From positions 2,825,003 to 2,889,002 of the forward strand of contig OZ243928.1 in the NCBI GenBank assembly GCA_965213865.1: DNA of 64,000 nucleotides, read 5' to 3'. Position 1 is the first letter of the stretch. Every line of letters begins with the position of its first letter. Positions 15,153 to 28,062 of the stretch are shown here, piece after piece. Origin of the DNA: Arenicellales bacterium. Its GTDB lineage: Bacteria; Pseudomonadota; Gammaproteobacteria; Arenicellales; JAJDZL01. The position numbers and the translations under genes are program-made. Below the pieces are notes generated by a model. That model was given only the letters and a program-made list of their open reading frames with translations, was not told where the DNA came from and searched no databases.

Positions 15153-15697
15153 CAAATCGCGAATGTGTCCGAAAGTTTCTCATGACAATCCGCTTGATTG
15201 CTGCGGCCGCCTGGAACTGCGGGAAGCTGGCTCAACCGATTTGTCGGGCAGCAAAAAGAGTCACTGATCTGCCGCGGCCCGCTCAGGAACGGAATTCTTT
15301 CTTTGGATGTCTTCGTCTGCAGCGCACCTCATGCCGAAAGCCTCTCGCGAACAGAGGCGCCAGTGGCCGGGACTTTCCAGAATGTTGGATGCAAGCGGAC
15401 ATGACAGGGATGATTTTCGGTCTCAACAAGGACGTTCCTGCACTTGACACTAATCAATAATCAAGTCACGGCGGACTTTCACAATCGCTCAATGCACTGG
15501 TCCGTGACAGACTGATGAGCCGACCTCAGTGAGCAGCGCAGCGCTCTGGCAGTGAACTCTTGATGCCGCTGTTGCCGGCATGTTCACACAGTTTTTTTCA
15601 TCTGTTTTTCCTCTAGTTCCAAGGTGCCATCATGCCAAAGTCAGAAACCTCATCTGCCAGTGACAAAACAGCCGCCAACATCCACGATGACTTCTTT

Positions 15698-17401
15698 CCC
15701 TGAATCCGCTTTAGAGAAGCCAGAAACAAGAAAAGCCCTGCCAGCATGACAGGCTGGAACCTAAACCCGTCTCGCCCATTGGGTGAAACTGAACCAGAAT
15801 ACGGAGCAAGGCTGATGAGGATTGTACCGCACTGCCGCGAATCGACCGGCGCGAAATTCACCTCCCGAGCCGGACTGACGGCATTGGCGCATTTCATGAG
15901 CAAGCTGGGGCTCAGCGAGCGGCGCGAGCAGCGGTTTCCGGCCGCCGGCAGCCACCGGGGCTGTCGCGCCAGCGAGTTTCTCCATGTGCTTGTGCTGCTG
16001 CTCATGGAGGGCGGGCGGTGTCTGGAGGATGTGCGTAATCTGCACGCCGAGCGGGGGCTGATGGCGCTGCCGGGCATCCGGCGGATGCCCCAAGCCGACG
16101 CCCTGGGCCGCTGGCTGCGGCGGCTGGGGCGCTGCGGCTCAGGCCGCAAGCGACTGGAGCGGCTCAATGCGAGAGTCATCCAGATGGCGCTGGGCGACCG
16201 GCGGCAGGTGACGCTGGATCTTGATGCAACCGCGGCGCTGTGCGGCAAAAGGCATGCGAGGCGGACTTGTCTTGGACAGCGCGGCTATATGCCGATGGTC
16301 GGACACATGGCTGAGACCGGGCCGGTGGCGGCCTCTGATTTTCGCCGCGGCAATCGCCCGCCGGACTATGACAATTTAGGTTTTATCAAGCGCTGCATCC
16401 GGGCCTTGCCGCCGGGGGTGAAGGTGACCCGGGTGCGCATTGATGCGGCGGGCTGGTCCCAGAAAGTCATCGGGTATTGCCAGGATCACGGCATTGGCTG
16501 TGCGATCCGGGCGAGAAGCTGCGATGACATCCGGCATGCGACTGCGAGCAGCCGCGAAAGCGACTGGCAGCCGCTGCGGCGGCGCGGCGGCGCGCTGTCA
16601 CAGAAAGAATCGACGATGCGCATGCTGCCTGTGACGGGCGGCGCTGAGGCGGCGCTCGCTGTGGTGATCCAGCGCCGCCTGAAAGACGAGGCCGATGACG
16701 GCGGGGCGGCTCAGCAGCGGCTGGAGATGCGGTGCGGGGCGGACGATCAGACGATTGACTGCGACCGGCATGTGTATCGCGCGATCGGGACCCATCTGGA
16801 TGTGCTGGACGGCTGGGACGGCAGCGGCATTGTGCGCTGGCACAGCCGGCGCGGCGACCGCAGCGAGAATCGGCTCCGCGAGATGAGGCAGGATTTTGCC
16901 AGCGGGCGGATGCCGTGCAGCGATCATCAGGCCCATGCGCTGCGGCTGTCGCTCAGCGCGTTTGCGTACAGCCTGTCTGTGCTGTTTCGGTACACGCTGC
17001 CGCAGGAGTCTGAGAGCGCCCGCGCCTCGACGGTGCGCTGCCGGCTGTTTGCGATCAGCGGCCGGATTGCGCATCACGCCCGCCAGACGGCGCTGCGGAT
17101 GCGGCATCGTCACCGGCTGCGGCTGGATCGGGTGATGGCTGGCATTGACCGGCTGCTGCCGGCCGCCTGACTCGGCGCCGCTGCCGGCGGCGCTTTCAAT
17201 CTGACAGATAGCAGCGCTCCGCTGAGGGCTGCGCCTGTACTGAATCGGCCGAAAGGCTGTCCAGGCGGCGCCAGTACGCCGCTTGGACAAGCCGATTCCC
17301 AATTTTTCTCACCGCGGCCGATCGACATGTCAAAATCGGGCTCGAAAAAGGTCGAAATCGACCCATCGATGCGAAAATGCCGCTCTAGCGCGGATTTAGG
17401 G
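15698..17401 (+). mobile_element. IS1380-family insertion sequence (1704 bp) with terminal inverted repeats
   Basis: The left end CCCTGAATCCGCTTTAGAGAAGCC (15698-15721) matches the reverse complement of the right end (17378-17401, read as CCCTAAATCCGCGCTAGAGCGGCA). By hand count, 18/24 positions match, including 16 of the outermost 19. The size, the CC-starting IRs and the single enclosed transposase ORF fit IS1380. No target-site duplication is visible (flanks ..CTTT / CAAA..). Confidence 0.75.
15746..17170 (+). CDS. IS1380-family DDE transposase
   Basis: Uninterrupted 474-aa ORF. 'KFTSRAGLTALAHFMSKLGL', 'VTLDLDATAAL', 'RGYMPMVGHMAETGP', 'RVRIDAAGWSQ' and 'VRWHSRRGDRSENRLREMRQDFASGRMPC' follow the IS1380 transposase pattern. 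It is visibly GC-richer than the flanking DNA. Confidence 0.85.
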   Translation: MTGWNLNPSRPLGETEPEYGARLMRIVPHCRESTGAKFTSRAGLTALAHFMSKLGLSERREQRFPAAGSHRGCRASEFLHVLVLLLMEGGRCLEDVRNLHAERGLMALPGIRRMPQADALGRWLRRLGRCGSGRKRLERLNARVIQMALGDRRQVTLDLDATAALCGKRHARRTCLGQRGYMPMVGHMAETGPVAASDFRRGNRPPDYDNLGFIKRCIRALPPGVKVTRVRIDAAGWSQKVIGYCQDHGIGCAIRARSCDDIRHATASSRESDWQPLRRRGGALSQKESTMRMLPVTGGAEAALAVVIQRRLKDEADDGGAAQQRLEMRCGADDQTIDCDRHVYRAIGTHLDVLDGWDGSGIVRWHSRRGDRSENRLREMRQDFASGRMPCSDHQAHALRLSLSAFAYSLSVLFRYTLPQESESARASTVRCRLFAISGRIAHHARQTALRMRHRHRLRLDRVMAGIDRLLPAA

Positions 17402-17408
17402 CAAATCA

Positions 17409-17944
17409 TTATTCGATCGGGATGACAATGGATCGGGCCGGCTCGTACATGATGATAGAGAGATGATGGCCTGAACCCACATCCTCGCCGCGACCAGTAC
17501 TGATCAGCAGATTCACTTCATTCAGCACCTGTCCAGGAAACACCCCATGTTCAGCAAGCAACCCCGCATTGCAGAATTCCGCACGGCCTTTCTCTGTCCA
17601 CCCGCTGCCCAAATTTACTCCGGCGCCCCCCACATAATCCCCATCGCATCGATTATCAGTGTTCAAACTCTGATCGCATGGACTTCCATCCCAGACAACG
17701 GCGCAAACCTCCAGAGGCGGATTGGTGATCGCGCAATCGGAGGGCAGTTGGAATCTGATGATGACTTGGTCATTGGGACTGAATCTACTCGGATTCCCAA
17801 TTGCTGGCCAGGCCTTGGTAATCTTGACATCACTGAGTGTGCACCGGGCCTCTGCCGTTCCGGCGGCCAGAGTCAAAGCCGCCAGCACAAAGGCGATCAG
17901 CGCTGTTAATTGTCGGGGGGGGAGGAGATAAGTAAAGTGCGCAT
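17409..17944 (-). CDS. Small six-Cys secreted protein, 5' end interrupted at a C8 tract (frameshifted / phase-OFF as sequenced)
   Basis: ORF track 17409..17888 has a GTG start and a truncated signal peptide. The ATG at 17944 opens MRTLLISSPPDN*, stopping at 17906-17908. Adding one C to the C8 tract gives MRTLLISSPPPRQLTALIAFVLAALTLAAGTAEA|RCTLSD..., continuous with the 159-codon ORF (178 aa in total). No family recognised. Confidence 0.55.
17915..17922 (-). repeat. Homopolymeric tract, C8 on the coding (minus) strand
   Basis: GGGGGGGG at 17915-17922 on the plus strand, between the ATG (17944) and the signal-peptide core of the gene above. Confidence 0.95.
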
Positions 17945-17981
17945 TTTCTTATTACTCAAAGCGAAAGACTATTAAAATTAT

Positions 17982-18011
17982 ATTCTAACTGAACTTCGCG
18001 GGTTGTGTCAA
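17982..18011 (-). promoter_or_regulatory. Candidate sigma-70 promoter for the gene starting at 17944
   Basis: The minus strand reads TTGACA (18011-18006), 18 nt, TAGAAT (17987-17982), with an overlapping TATAAT (17982-17977). It lies ~37 nt upstream of the ATG. The -35 overlaps the TGA (18008-18010) of the transposase remnant. Confidence 0.4.
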
Positions 18012-19376
18012 ATCAGCAATTCTAATTTTGGCGTGCGGGTCAGTTCATTGGATATTCGGGTGATTTTAAAAATTCGGGTTCTTCTCAGTGCGGCGGGCTC
18101 TCGTTGCGGCGGGGCGGCGAGCTGCTGGGGCCGGGCCACCGTCTTGAGCAGCTCGGACCAGCTCTTGAAATAGATGTATTCGGTCAGCAGATCCAAGGCG
18201 GCAAAGAAGCGCTTTCTGCGAAAACACTGGTGATGCGCGATTTTCCACAGCGTGCACAGCGGGTCGCACACGCCATGGAACGCAAAGGCCAGCAGGTTGA
18301 GCGTGAGCAGCGTATTGGACAGGCCGTTTTTGCCATCGCCGAAATTGTGCTCCATGTGACAGCCTTGGTTCTTGAGCAGGCTGGAGCCCTCGTTCTCGCA
18401 TTTCCAGCGGGCGCGCCCGGCGGCGATGAGGGTCTCGATATTGCTCTCATCGAGCTTGATGGAGGCGATGAGGCGGAACGTCTGTCCCGCGCGGCGCGCG
18501 CCGGCCTGGCGGATCTCAAGCTCGATCTAGCAGGCTTGCAAGGGTTTTTCCTGGCCGTCAGCGGCAGGCGGTGATAAGTCCACCGCCAGCGCTGCTGCCG
18601 GTTGGGCTTGCGCCGGCCCGGGGTCTTGACCATGCGCTCCCGGTGCGGCCAGTCGATGCCGTCGACATAGCTGAACAGCGTGGTGTGGCCATCGGTTTTC
18701 ACGCGCAGGATGAAGTCGGCGCCGGCCGCCAGGATCTTTCTGCACATCGGCTCTTTGGCGTAGAGGTCATCGCCGAGACAGATCGGCCTGAGGCCGGCAT
18801 GGCGCGCGGCGTTGCGGTCCAGCCAGCGGCAGGCGGCCTTGGTCTCGCAGTCCTGCTTGGCGTCGCCGTCCTGCGGGGTGATGAATTCCGGGCGCAGCGG
18901 CACCGCATGCGGGTGGCCGATCCCGACCAGGACCGCCGCCAGCACGCTGTGACAGTATTCGGTGTACTGGGTGTCCTTGCCTTTGTTCTTGACGCGGGTC
19001 TGGCAGTGCTGGCAGTGGATCTCGCGCGAGTTTGAAACTCAGAGCCGTCGAGCGCGATCGGCGTGCGTCCGCCCAGGGCCTGATAGGGCCCGAGAGCGCT
19101 GAAGGTCTGCAGCTGCTCGAACGCCAGGTCGAAGCCGTCATGCAGGTCGGCGCTGTCGATGCGGTCGAGCTGGGCGCGGATGTGAATGTCAGTCGGCAGG
19201 CGCGCGATGCCGAACAGCGAGCCGGCGGCGCTTTTGCCGTTCGCCTTGTGGAACACCCGCTGGTGGTCCAGAAACGACGGCGACTGGATGAAAAAGCACG
19301 AAAACGCGCTCATGACAATATCGTCAAAGCGGTACTGCTTGTTTCGGCCCCGGCGCGGGTCGGGCACCCGGGCGAA
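18008..19376 (-). pseudogene. Degraded DDE transposase (IS4/IS5-superfamily-like; family not resolved)
   Basis: Transposase-like sequence is spread over three minus-strand frames. Frame 1 (to ~19035): 'ARVPDPRRGRNKQYRFDDIVMSAFSCFFIQSPSFL...LFGIARLPTD...ALDGSEF'. Frame 2 (to ~18555): 'EIHCQHCQTRVKNKGKDTQYTEYCHSVLAAVLVGIGHPHAVPLRPEFITPQDGDAKQDCE...FILRVKTDGHTTLF...WRWTYHRLPLT'. Frame 3: 'ADGQEKPLQAC*IELEIRQ...LIAAGRARWKCENEGSSLLKNQGCHMEHNFGDGKNGLSNTLLTLNLLAFAFH', with an in-frame TAG at 18527-18529. That makes two frameshifts plus one nonsense codon. Confidence 0.75.
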
Positions 19377-20015
19377 CACGGCGACGCGCTCGGCGTGCGG
19401 CAGCGCCCGGCAGCGCCGCCCCCAGTTTTGCGCCTTGCGCTTGATGCGCTGGCGGTCGGTGAAGTTTTTCCCCGCGCAGCGCCACCAGTGGACGCGGTCC
19501 GGCGTGAAGCTGAACCACACCCTTTCGGTGACCACCCCGGCCTGGTTCATGACCTGCAGCGCCAGGGTGTTCCAGTCACTGAGGGCGTCGTCATACAGCG
19601 CCGAGCTGCAGCCGCAGATCATCACCGCGCAGGGCAGGCGCCGCACAATCTCAAGCAGCTCCAGGGGGTCGGATTCCTCATAGTCACAGCGGCAGCGGCA
19701 GCGCTCAGGAGCCTTGCGGGCGGAGGCCAGATAGGGCGGGTCGCAAAACACCAGCTCGGTGCCGTCCCAGTCAAACTGCGCCAGATACGCATGGCAGCAG
19801 CCGTGGACCAGCTCCACCGGACAGTGGCGCTCAAATGCCTTGATGGCGCGCCGGTCCAGATCGATGCCGATGCTGCGCAGCGCCGCCGGCTTTCTCTGCA
19901 TGATGCGCCCGTTGCCCAGGTGCGACTCGATGAAAGTCGCATGGGGCGGCATCAGGGCGATCAGCGGCTGGCACAGTCCTGAGGTGGCTTTGGAGCCGAA
20001 AAAAAGGTTGCCCAT
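19377..20015 (-). CDS. Dam-like N6-adenine DNA methyltransferase (D12 class) lacking its own stop codon
   Basis: This is the N-terminal ~213 codons of ORF 18699..20015. 'NLFFGSKATSGLCQPLIALMPPHATFIESHLGNGRIM' carries the GxK and FxGxG-like SAM region. 'ELVFCDPPYLA' carries the DPPY catalytic motif (19731-19742). 'GKNFTDRQRIKRKAQNWGRR' follows. The reading frame continues directly into transposase-derived sequence; the boundary (~19376) is approximate. Confidence 0.6.
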
Positions 20016-20623
20016 GGGCCTGAGATCCGCGGTCTGAGATGCAATGGCGGAAAAGAACAGCGGAGCCGGGCTGTTTTGTCAAGCGCGGCGGGCGGAAAAA
20101 ACGCCCGCCGCCGGCAGACAAGGCCTGCATGGAGGTGCAGCCGTAAATCCGGGCCTGCGGCGCGTGAAAAAAACTTGGTGCTGGCGATTCTAAGTCTTTC
20201 AGCTTTTCAAATAAAAATAGCTGTTACAGCAGCTTGATGCGCTGCAGGCGGTGAGGAGACTGGGCAGTCAAGCCAAAATTAGAACTGCTGGGCGGCCAGT
20301 CAGACGGATAGTTTTTCGGAGAGTTTTCAGCAAATGCACTGGTGCGGTGGCGCACGGGTGAAAATACAGTGGCAGGCAGGACTGGCATGAGCATCATATC
20401 AGCAGCCATGCAAGCATAGTCTGGATTTTCACCCAGCTACGAGTTGCGGCTTGCGGAAAGGATTGACACACCCAAATGGCGATACGCAATCAACCTCAAT
20501 GAACCGGCCTTGCCTGCAACTCGATTCGTGAGAAAAAATCATAAAAGCAGAACTTTTAGCCATCTGCGCTCGCAGCTGAACTGTTTCGAATTCGATCATA
20601 TCCTGTCCAGCTGTTGATCAGTT

Positions 20624-26942: not shown

Positions 26943-27182
26943 TCGAATCGCACTCAGAAATATTCCGCAAGCAGTCGATCTCTGGGGGATCAGCTTTGTC
27001 ATTTGCACGACGCTTGGACTTTGTTTGACAGATTGCAGGAACCACAGCGGCACCTATATCGGCAGCTGCAAATGATCCATTATATTGATCGAAGGCAATG
27101 GCCCAGTTTGAAAATCATCCCATTCTGCGGGCTGGAATTGGTATACTTTACCGGAAGTGTATTCAACTTTGGCAGAGCAAAA

Positions 27183-27894
27183 ATGAAGCATTCAGCAAAA
27201 TTCAATTCACCCCCCCCCTCCTCATCATAAGCGGCTGACGGCCCTCGCCGCGGCACTGCTGGCGCTGCCTGCGGCTGCGCAGGTGGACTGGTCGATTGTG
27301 GGTGGGACAGGACCCGGTTTCTGCACCGGGGGCAAGACTGAGATGCAAGCCACCCTTTTTACCGTAACGAGCACTCCCGATAAAAACAGCATAGGATTGG
27401 GCACGTCGGCGCTTACATCCAATCAGGTCAGAGGCTTTATCGGCGGCGGCAGTTTTTCAAAGGTCGCTCTGAGAGTGCTGGAAAGCGAGACGAACCGGGA
27501 GGTTCGCAGCATAAACCTCGGAGAAGTCAATTTTCCCTCCCCCAGCATAGCGGCGAAGACCCACAACATTGCCGGCCTCAAGCAGAACCGGGCCTATGTC
27601 ACCGTTCTTTCTGCCGGGAATCCGGACCCCAAAAACCGGACTTTCGCGAGGCTGTGCTTCCGCACGGCGGCCGATCTGGAGATCCCCCTTGGCTCGGGTC
27701 GCGGCGACGCCGGTCCCGGCGATTCGTTTTCGAGCGGGTGCTACGCCTTCAGCAAGGACCCGAATCAGATCCGGGCCTGCTTTTGCGGAGCCCGGAACTC
27801 GTCAGGCAGCTGGGCGCGCACGGATGCCGAAGACGGCTACGAGTATATGCTGGGCGCCGCCTGGAGACAAAACGTGGGCTGCACGACGAACTGA
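27183..27894 (+). CDS. Six-Cys secreted protein, 5' end interrupted at a C9 tract (frameshifted / phase-OFF as sequenced)
   Basis: ORF track 27283..27894 has a GTG start and no signal peptide. The ATG at 27183 opens MKHSAKFNSPPPSSS*, stopping at 27228-27230. Removing one C from the C9 tract gives MKHSAKFNSPPPPHHKRLTALAAALLALPAAAQVDWSIVGG..., continuous with the 203-codon ORF (236 aa in total). No family recognised. Confidence 0.55.
27210..27218 (+). repeat. Homopolymeric tract, C9 on the coding (plus) strand
   Basis: CCCCCCCCC at 27210-27218, between the ATG (27183) and the signal-peptide core of the gene above. Confidence 0.95.
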
Positions 27895-27980
27895 CGGCGC
27901 TGCGGGCGATTGCCGTCAGGCGGCTTTCGGCCGGCGGCGGCATCTGCCGGACTGGCTGAGGCAGACCGGCAGCCTGATGA

Positions 27981-28008
27981 CCGGAGGCGGCCTGCGGGCC
28001 GCCTCCGG
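27981..28008. terminator. GC-rich hairpin between convergent genes
   Basis: CCGGAGGCGGCC (27981-27992), TGCG, GGCCGCCTCCGG (27997-28008): a perfect 12-bp stem with a 4-nt loop. It lies between stop 27894 (+) and stop 28063 (-). No adjacent U-tract. Confidence 0.45.
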
Positions 28009-28062
28009 TCCGGCAGTTTCAGGCTGAGGCGCTGCCTGATCGAGCATGTGCGCCGCATCGGT

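Follow-up and report, generated by a model that had tools for sequence, protein, structure and literature searches.

A poly-C tract between start codon and signal peptide as a probable phase-variable switch of small mobile cassettes in sponge symbionts

In a 64,000-nucleotide stretch of an Arenicellales bacterium (GenBank assembly GCA_965213865.1, contig OZ243928.1, positions 2,825,003 to 2,889,002 of the forward strand; hereafter the window), two genes for small, cysteine-rich and probably exported proteins are each separated from their start codon by a run of cytosines of a length that puts the gene out of frame. Gene A is on the plus strand and has a C9 run, and gene B is on the minus strand and has a C8 run. 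This raises the question of whether the two genes are simply damaged or whether the poly-C tract is a working part that they have in common. Our analysis indicates that both genes are the cargo of one kind of small mobile cassette, common in bacteria associated with sponges, in which the poly-C tract most likely serves as an on/off switch by slipped-strand phase variation. An initial annotation, made from the letters of the window, had seen in the two genes not a pair of independent accidents but a small, switchable family of exported proteins that have a conserved switch cassette in common. This proposal is supported by the conservation of the tract, by further cargo proteins, by inverted cassette ends and by the stop codons that follow the tract, although the family proved to be large.

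Tract length and reading frame in the window and its relatives

The two tracts are the only G or C runs of seven or more nucleotides in the window. Both are located 7 to 9 codons past an ATG, close to the 8 to 9 codons estimated initially, and both cut this ATG off from a predicted signal peptide and an intact open reading frame (ORF) containing six cysteines. At locus A, the actual frame is terminated by a TAA shortly past the tract; with C8 it becomes SPPPPHHKRLTALAAALLALPAAAQVDW and is open through 27894. One base on from the current frame, the ORF PHHKRLTALAAALLALPAAAQVDWS... extends over 224 codons to 27894. At locus B, C9 results in SSPPRQLTALIAFVLAALTLAAGTAEARC, open through 17409, and the neighbouring frame reads RQLTALIAFVLAALTLAAGTAEARC..., to 17409. 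The opposite single-C shifts inferred initially were thus confirmed (-1 for gene A and +1 for gene B), and the repaired leaders proposed at that stage were right overall, except that one added C at locus B gives SSPP, with two prolines, and not SSPPP. Dinucleotide shuffles produced 0.67 +/- 0.99 C8 matches, and the observed number of 3 was reached in 6 of 100. The number of C runs in the window is by itself not significant, and the case therefore rests on the placement of the tracts and their conservation in relatives.

Both tracts were compared with independently assembled contigs from public sequencing runs, comprising five runs, four samples and two host labels. The C9 tract was present ungapped in contigs of runs X1 to X5 and the C8 tract in those of X1, X2, X4 and X8. 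This agreement between separate assemblies shows that the tracts are real and not artefacts, a possibility that the initial annotation had raised. Every run showed only the OFF length at both loci and no alternative form, as seen in contigs, from which minority variants are dropped.

Homologues are numerous. Forty-three were identified for the family-A protein (P0001) and 16 for the family-B protein (P0002), and P0013 and P0023 are paralogues in the window's own genome. A total of 49 family-A loci were taken from species-representative genomes. The metagenome-assembled genomes (MAGs) that harbor family A are labelled Arenicellales, Candidatus Poriferihabitans / Poriferihabitaceae, Candidatus Azotimanducus, Pseudomonadales, Paracoccaceae, Aestuariivita and Alphaproteobacteria; one paper connects MAGs of the Poriferihabitaceae with a HiFi-read assembly of a sponge metagenome. 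Nearly all full-length family-A copies possess a tract of C7 to C29 directly before the signal peptide, and five family-B loci have C11 to C25 at the same position. The peptide ahead of the tract is short in the relatives of gene A as well, reading MKHYRNS, MKRSTRF, MKHSTRL or MTRF at the corresponding spot.

The frame state differs among the copies: of 37 non-identical leaders, 10 are ON, 14 need a change of -1 and 13 a change of +1. This mixed requirement argues against any fixed recoding offset, so that a programmed frameshift of fixed offset was rejected, and it fits a random walk of tract length. Members that are in frame start with MKHYRNSPPPPLNKLA..., MKQYRNSPPPPPPLAKLA... and MTRFTPPPPPPLAKLA... 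in family A and with MRQSSPPPPPPPPRQLTAL... and MKQITPPPPPPSPCGIAQLKRLTAL... in family B; a further in-frame relative starts with MKQITPPPPCGIAQLKRLTAL.... For many other relatives, the called protein begins at an internal start, for example MLAVPTMAQVDWS or MTALIAIAL, as is typical of out-of-frame tracts. The ORFs downstream of the examined OFF copies are intact, and the six cysteines initially counted in each of the two mature proteins are all invariant within their families. Truncated family-A fragments were found at loci L028, L031, L033, L036 and L043.

Two loci of one MAG, L010 and L011, have tracts of C23 and C29, respectively, but are identical over 745 nt of flanking sequence. The tract thus changes faster than its surroundings. 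The two loci form a duplicate of at least 2.7 kb (L010:906-3618 and L011:900-3618), the copies of which are 1.3 Mb apart and differ by 6 mismatches.

Sequence behind the tract, leader modules and cassette ends

The codons that follow the tract are rich in stops of the other two frames. In 26 of the 37 leaders, both wrong frames are closed within 21 nt past the tract. The same double closure was found at 5 % of the internal in-frame positions of these genes, and synonymous recoding with the genes' own codon usage yielded 4.7 +/- 1.5 of 37 and, over 2000 trials, never more than 10. The sequence solutions are varied: GCT AAA CTA GCG (AKLA) conceals TAA and TAG, CGT AGA CTG ACA (RRLT) conceals TAG and TGA, CAT AAG CGG CTG ACG of gene A conceals TAA and TGA, the latter formed by the Leu-Thr codons CTG ACG, and CAA TTA ACA of gene B conceals TAA. 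As many leaders are paralogous, this variety is a stronger point than the counts. The motif after the tract can be read as a stop trap that would end wrong-frame translation at once. The recurrence of a basic residue followed by Leu-Thr (or Ala-Lys-Leu-Ala) would be explained in the same way, because a TGA or TAA arises in another frame wherever CTG, TTA or TTG precedes ACN.

The leaders of the two window genes had been described initially as one design, with an identical LTAL at the start of the hydrophobic core. The in-register match of the leaders, 8 of 18 residues, is marginal (P = 0.027 in composition-preserving shuffles). The LTAL run is present in both (P = 0.047) and is explained as a piece of the stop trap. 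Two of the 8 identical residues have an identical codon, and nucleotide identity amounts to 22 of 54; by region, genes A and B share 51 % identity upstream, 59 % in the leader and 50 % in the cargo, compared to a cross-family baseline of about 52 %. These data favour a shared design without recent common sequence. Recent copying of one leader onto both window genes was rejected, since nucleotide identity is at baseline and the codons differ.

Across the wider set of cassettes, the aligned sequences clearly point to modules that move, with joints at the tract. In the mosaic E_L025, the upstream module of A_L032 (81 % identity) meets, at the tract, the post-tract leader of A_L009, and the cargo behind them is unrelated. 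Similarly, the post-tract leader of D_L038 is that of A_L021, whereas the upstream module and cargo differ. At least four further unrelated cargo proteins, assigned to families C, D, E and F, have the same leader, as does P0062. Cargo with this leader that turned up in the flanks includes an A-like but divergent protein at L003:2566 and L043, a protein with CTSSxCT at L038 and on the minus strand of L012, one with HNNYKPT at L025 and L034, and a case at L054:766. A Sec-like pattern is visible by eye in every leader, with examples being KRLTALAAALLALPAAA-Q, RQLTALIAFVLAALTLAAGTAEA-R and PSMA-QVDW. A protein search with the leader by itself (P0038, residues 1-40) retrieved one further protein, P0062, because most copies are out of frame and their leader is missing from the called proteins. 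At L052:4905-4922, the gene for a 1235-aa protein starts with MRPCNL, a C18 run and a stretch resembling a signal peptide, in this order, which suggests that the switch is not limited to small cargo.

Both families are framed by the same ends. A 19-nt motif, GTAGTG.CTCAGTTTGAAA, is located 78 to 112 nt before the tract and recurs in reverse complement about 100 nt past the stop codon. With one more G, it forms the terminal inverted repeats GGTAGTG.CTCAGTTTGAAA, of the GGnnnTG type, found at both ends of A and B cassettes. Target duplications are perfect 8-bp repeats in nine cassettes and match at 7 of 8 positions in three more; those of the window's cassette A also match at 7 of 8. A complete cassette measures 0.75 to 1.6 kb, mostly about 0.9 kb. 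Within it, a conserved GTATAAT-like box is found about 35 nt before the Shine-Dalgarno sequence and ATG, the ATG is followed by 3 to 9 free codons before the tract, and a G+C hairpin is situated ahead of the right end. The box may correspond to the -10 element of a promoter; a scan with the sigma-70 consensus, which demands a -35 element, did not report it and revealed no fitting -35.

Cassette A, spanning 27094-28036, is complete but has decayed ends. Gene B, in turn, is no longer flanked by inverted ends, and the 5' module that it once had is gone as well: its homology to other B cassettes starts exactly at the tract and stops shortly past the stop codon, and no inverted ends remain around it. 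Run X5, which belongs to another study and to the second host label, contains the 5' half of cassette A (window 27087-27395) with 0 differences, C9 included. One X5 contig contains this 5' half with an intact ...CGGTAG-TGGCCCAGTTTGAAAA (GGTAGTG) end in another left flank, the loose end being at 27099; this suggests that the copy has moved or been transferred recently.

The same ends with 8-bp duplications bound miniature inverted-repeat transposable elements of 130 to 580 bp in unrelated soil, peat and water metagenomes, as well as 3- to 4-kb metagenome elements that encode a helix-turn-helix (HTH) plus a DDE_Tnp_IS1 protein. ORFs of the L073 and L133 elements matched Pfam DDE_Tnp_IS1 with E values of 1.5e-7 and 2.8e-6, and the top-ranking NCBIfam model for the transposase was transpos_IS1 (E 2e-16), with 60.5 bits and thus under its cut-off of 100. 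The assignment of the transposase of these ends to the IS1 family of insertion sequences (IS) is tentative. No autonomous transposase-bearing partner was found in the symbiont loci examined. A G/C run near a cassette end was present in 1 of 136 general-metagenome occurrences, and the end motif is not specific to the cassettes, which points to the ends as a widespread IS1-like vehicle and to the poly-C leader as a passenger that is peculiar to the cassettes of the symbionts. The paired inverted ends, the 8-bp duplications and the scattered chromosomal sites led us to reject integron cassettes as an explanation. The IS30 transposase beside cassette L052 is unrelated to the cassette ends, and a search of a plasmid collection gave no match.

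Several further observations concern these ends. The exact 19-nt end is widespread in contigs from soil, peat, freshwater and marine metagenomes (L056-L167). The 3- to 4-kb element of L133, bounded by 8-bp duplications, carries a passenger STAND/AAA NTPase beside the IS1-like transposase. Doubled left ends, with a repeat of the right-end type (GTAGTGGCTCATTTTGAACATTGCG) directly beside the regular left one, were seen at L004:1353-1402, L018:1362-1411 and L029:1300-1349; the target duplication of L018 is formed with the outer of the two. At L002:3862-5561 and L054:1513-2104, family-B cassettes adjoin toxin-antitoxin pairs (AbiEii/AbiEi and BrnT/HTH antitoxin), and as further cassette ends are found nearby, these sites may be insertion hot spots or composite islands.

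Proposed action of the tract and alternative explanations

The cassettes can be summarized in a single order: inverted repeat and 8-bp duplication, -10 box, Shine-Dalgarno sequence, ATG with 3 to 9 codons, and C7 to C29. Behind the tract come stop codons that close the two wrong frames in the first 20 nt or so, then a putative Sec-type signal peptide, the cargo in the form of a small beta-sandwich protein rich in cysteines, and the G+C hairpin. In such an arrangement, the ATG would share its frame with the signal peptide and cargo only at certain tract lengths. This length would be altered when strands mispair by slippage during replication, which would give rise to a heritable, reversible ON/OFF phase variation at the level of translation, and the stop trap would end wrong-frame translation within a few codons. 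Both switches of the window would be in the OFF state. A wider proposal, which we put forward tentatively, is that the tract may be a recombination joint besides a switch, since it is identical in every cassette and would let start modules (inverted end, promoter, Shine-Dalgarno sequence and ATG), signal peptides with their stop trap, and cargo re-assort. IS1-like transposition and horizontal transfer may have spread the resulting units among sponge symbionts of different orders and, going by the record labels, classes, leading to a modular, community-wide stochastic display of host-facing proteins in the microbiome of an animal that lives in mutualism with it.

A number of points weigh against phase variation as the explanation for the window genes. 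Their C8 and C9 tracts are at the short end of the tract set; any switching at them may be slow, and either gene could be drifting towards permanent inactivation. Since assembler contigs lose rare variants, the single length seen in each run represents the majority state and not an absence of switching. The relatives come from PacBio HiFi metagenome assemblies, in which long homopolymers are error-prone, which leaves the ON/OFF state of individual copies with tracts of C15 or longer uncertain. The statistics are based on ORFs of at least 150 aa, and as paralogues make up many of the leaders, the counts do not represent independent events. Family B shuts only one wrong frame early, and the third frame of gene B is open for 82 nt. 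Finally, the promoter, Sec export and the cleavage sites are predictions made by visual inspection.

Among the alternatives, an unlikely one is that RNA polymerase slippage or a ribosome shift on the C run allows each copy to make some in-frame product, the tract tuning dosage. Long C runs are prone to polymerase stuttering, a form of bacterial transcriptional slippage, and the C12 to C29 tracts far exceed the needs of DNA slippage; a leaky OFF state would also make it easier to see why all sampled populations have the OFF length at both window loci. However, the varying correction documented above for the 37 leaders is at odds with a programmed shift, and the closure of both wrong frames within a few codons is what would be expected if wrong-frame products are discarded and not rescued. 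Moreover, stuttering on runs as short as 8 or 9 C is probably inefficient.

It is quite improbable that the genes are ordinary decaying pseudogenes, with fixed frameshift damage at homopolymers and a generic likeness of signal peptides. Such decay would be in line with the OFF state of both genes in every run, the degenerate ends of cassette A, the position of gene B without ends between two IS elements, the family-A fragments elsewhere and the marginal match of the window leaders. Yet decay would erase the tract, which has been kept at one position in copies numbering dozens, from more than one genus and in several families of cargo. The ORFs behind OFF tracts are of full length with all cysteines intact, and the codons after the tract are enriched for out-of-frame stops beyond the needs of the peptide. 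The idea that the genes are really intact and the tracts homopolymer errors of a HiFi metagenome assembly, in which homopolymer indels are the main error type, is largely refuted and can be given next to no weight in view of the exact, ungapped C9 and C8 in the independent contigs mentioned above.

Slipped-strand switching of the proposed kind has precedents, and homopolymer phase variation is textbook biology for mucosal pathogens. As in the cassettes, a repeat tract a few codons past the start, in or before the export signal, sets the frame of Neisseria pilC, Neisseria autotransporters, Campylobacter poly-G genes and Helicobacter outer-membrane protein repeats. Genes of the Neisseria pilC type also have alleles in all three frames and surface or secreted products in a host-associated bacterium. 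In contrast to these genes, with which there is no sequence homology, the cassettes are a transposon-like, portable unit on at least six unrelated cargo proteins, add a stop trap for two frames, have tracts of up to C29 and belong to sponge symbionts instead of mucosal pathogens. In the literature searched, no description of homopolymer phase variation for sponge symbionts was found. Mobile insertion cassettes and the passenger-bearing IS derivatives of the IS1 family (ISMhu11-like group) resemble the cassettes in the GGnnnTG ends, the 8-bp duplication, the lack of a transposase and the passenger gene inside; here, however, the passenger would be a self-contained phase-variable gene for a secreted protein. 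The stop trap recalls the ambush (hidden stop) hypothesis, in which off-frame stops likewise end frameshifted translation early, but the enrichment observed here is local, within 21 nt past a slippery tract, and not a genome-wide codon trend.

Promoter-spacer switches, such as those of Neisseria porA and opc and Bordetella fim, differ from both window genes, which are of the translational type, but resemble one family-A variant in a Paracoccaceae-labelled MAG. In this variant (L012:1326-1400 and L023:1363-1440), a C10 or C9 run, respectively, is located between TTGAAT and TACAGT, giving a spacer of 19 or 18, and the gene's own ATG lies about 70 nt downstream. The run looks like a homopolymer switch of the promoter-spacer type on family-A cargo.

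The switch thus has the appearance of a standard portable part, present in many copies per genome, in several symbiont lineages and on several unrelated secreted proteins. If switching is real, beneficial symbionts of an animal group that is among the earliest to branch off would display FN3-like or Cys-rich surface or secreted proteins stochastically, which would bear on the evasion of host phagocytosis, phage attack or competition. The unit of promoter, ATG, tract, stop trap and signal peptide may be of use as a compact natural part for slippage studies, and the cassettes offer a clear case of passenger-gene capture by IS1-like elements. They are also of relevance for annotation, as gene callers routinely mis-start such genes inside the signal peptide.

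Cargo proteins and the coordinates of both loci

Neither mature protein matched a Pfam or NCBIfam entry, and PDB sequence profiles gave nothing significant for either. The family-A structural model has a predicted local distance difference test score (pLDDT) of 74 overall and of 84-95 over residues 30-150, corresponding to a confident beta-sandwich. Its best PDB structure matches are FN3 domains (5dft, E 1.6e-4, target template modeling score 0.60), and the N-terminal part is accordingly modelled as an FN3-like sandwich of seven strands. The conserved Cys-rich C-terminal 75 residues are poorly modelled. The family-A profile retrieved only 110 clusters among 1.84 billion representatives, some of which are 700-3300 aa long with a repeated N-domain. 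The family-B model is weak (pLDDT 61) and beta-rich, and all its PDB matches have E values of 0.02 or worse.

As noted initially, the mature sequences show no obvious similarity: an hhalign comparison of A and B aligned only 20 signal-peptide columns with a probability of 31 %, and the mature proteins appear unrelated, without detectable homology. Structure prediction, which had been suggested as a means of revealing a shared fold, showed none, with A being FN3-like and B of low confidence. Since the two share neither detectable homology nor a demonstrated fold, their equal number of cysteines is a coincidence of two small disulfide-rich exported proteins.

Over 26 family-A loci, the median synonymous divergence (dS) is 1.15 for the N-domain and 0.36 for the C-domain, with ratios of nonsynonymous to synonymous divergence (dN/dS) of 0.62 and 0.43, respectively. 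The low C-domain dS suggests gene conversion or homogenisation of this domain, or exchange of the N-domain. In the sponge runs, DNA of the family-A C-domain (window 27650-27890) is found at 70-150x the word depth of unique flanks (23,687 versus 155 in X3), indicating very many near-identical copies in the community.

The features of both loci are compiled in Table 1. A search of Rfam revealed no RNA family in the window or the leader.

Table 1. Coordinates of the features at loci A and B, given as window positions
Feature	Position	Strand	Remarks
Locus A: left target-site duplication TGATCGAA	27086..27093	.	7/8 match to TGATCGAG at 28037-28044; relatives have perfect 8-bp duplications at equal offsets
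Locus A: left terminal inverted repeat	27094..27116	+	gGCAATGGCCCAGTTTGAAAATC, compared with consensus GGTAGTG.CTCAGTTTGAAAAT; first bases degenerate
Locus A: candidate -10-like box TATACT	27142..27147	+	about 36 nt 5' of ATG; aligns with conserved GTATAAT / GTACAAT / GTATTAT of nearly all cassettes
Locus A: Shine-Dalgarno-like GGCAGAG	27171..27177	+	GGAGAG or GGAGGA equally spaced in relatives
Locus A: ATG and nine-codon N-peptide MKHSAKFNS	27183..27209	+	relatives: MKHYRNS, MKRSTRF, MKHSTRL or MTRF
Locus A: poly-C tract, C9	27210..27218	+	gene A OFF; in frame if C8 or C11
Locus A: predicted signal-peptide frame PHHKRLTALAAALLALPAAAQ	27220..27282	+	by eye: basic n-region, hydrophobic core, AAA-Q cleavage-like site
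Locus A: putative stop trap	27228..27238	+	TAA 27228-27230 (current frame); TGA 27236-27238 (third frame)
Locus A: mature family-A protein and stop codon	27283..27894	+	variable, predicted FN3-like beta-sandwich, then conserved Cys-rich C-terminal domain (six Cys)
Locus A: 13-bp G+C stem-loop, candidate terminator	27980..28009	+	inside right end; z = -5.2
Locus A: right terminal inverted repeat	28014..28036	-	degenerate; reverse complement GGCAGCGCCTCAGCCTGAAACTG
Locus A: right target-site duplication TGATCGAG	28037..28044	.	pairs with 27086-27093, 7/8
Locus B: candidate TATAAT box	17977..17982	-	32 nt 5' of gene B ATG; geometry as in the cassettes
Locus B: ATG and N-peptide MRTLLIS(S)	17923..17944	-	ATG at 17944; 5' module non-homologous to other family-B cassettes
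Locus B: poly-C tract, C8 (G8 on + strand)	17915..17922	-	gene B OFF; in frame if C9 or C6
Locus B: TAA ending the current frame	17906..17908	-	6 nt past the tract; within CAA TTA ACA (Gln-Leu-Thr)
Locus B: predicted signal-peptide frame RQLTALIAFVLAALTLAAGTAEA	17847..17915	-	by eye
Locus B: mature family-B protein and stop codon	17409..17846	-	six invariant Cys, predicted beta-rich
IS element, DDE_Tnp_1_assoc transposase	18014..20290	-	22-nt inverted ends 18014-18035 and 20269-20290; edge 69 nt upstream of gene B ATG
Second transposase gene, DDE_Tnp_1_4	15746..17170	+	other side of gene B

The surroundings of gene B stand out in base composition. Window positions 15600-20300 form a G+C-rich island (62-64 %, compared to about 53 %), which consists of the two IS elements that bracket gene B.

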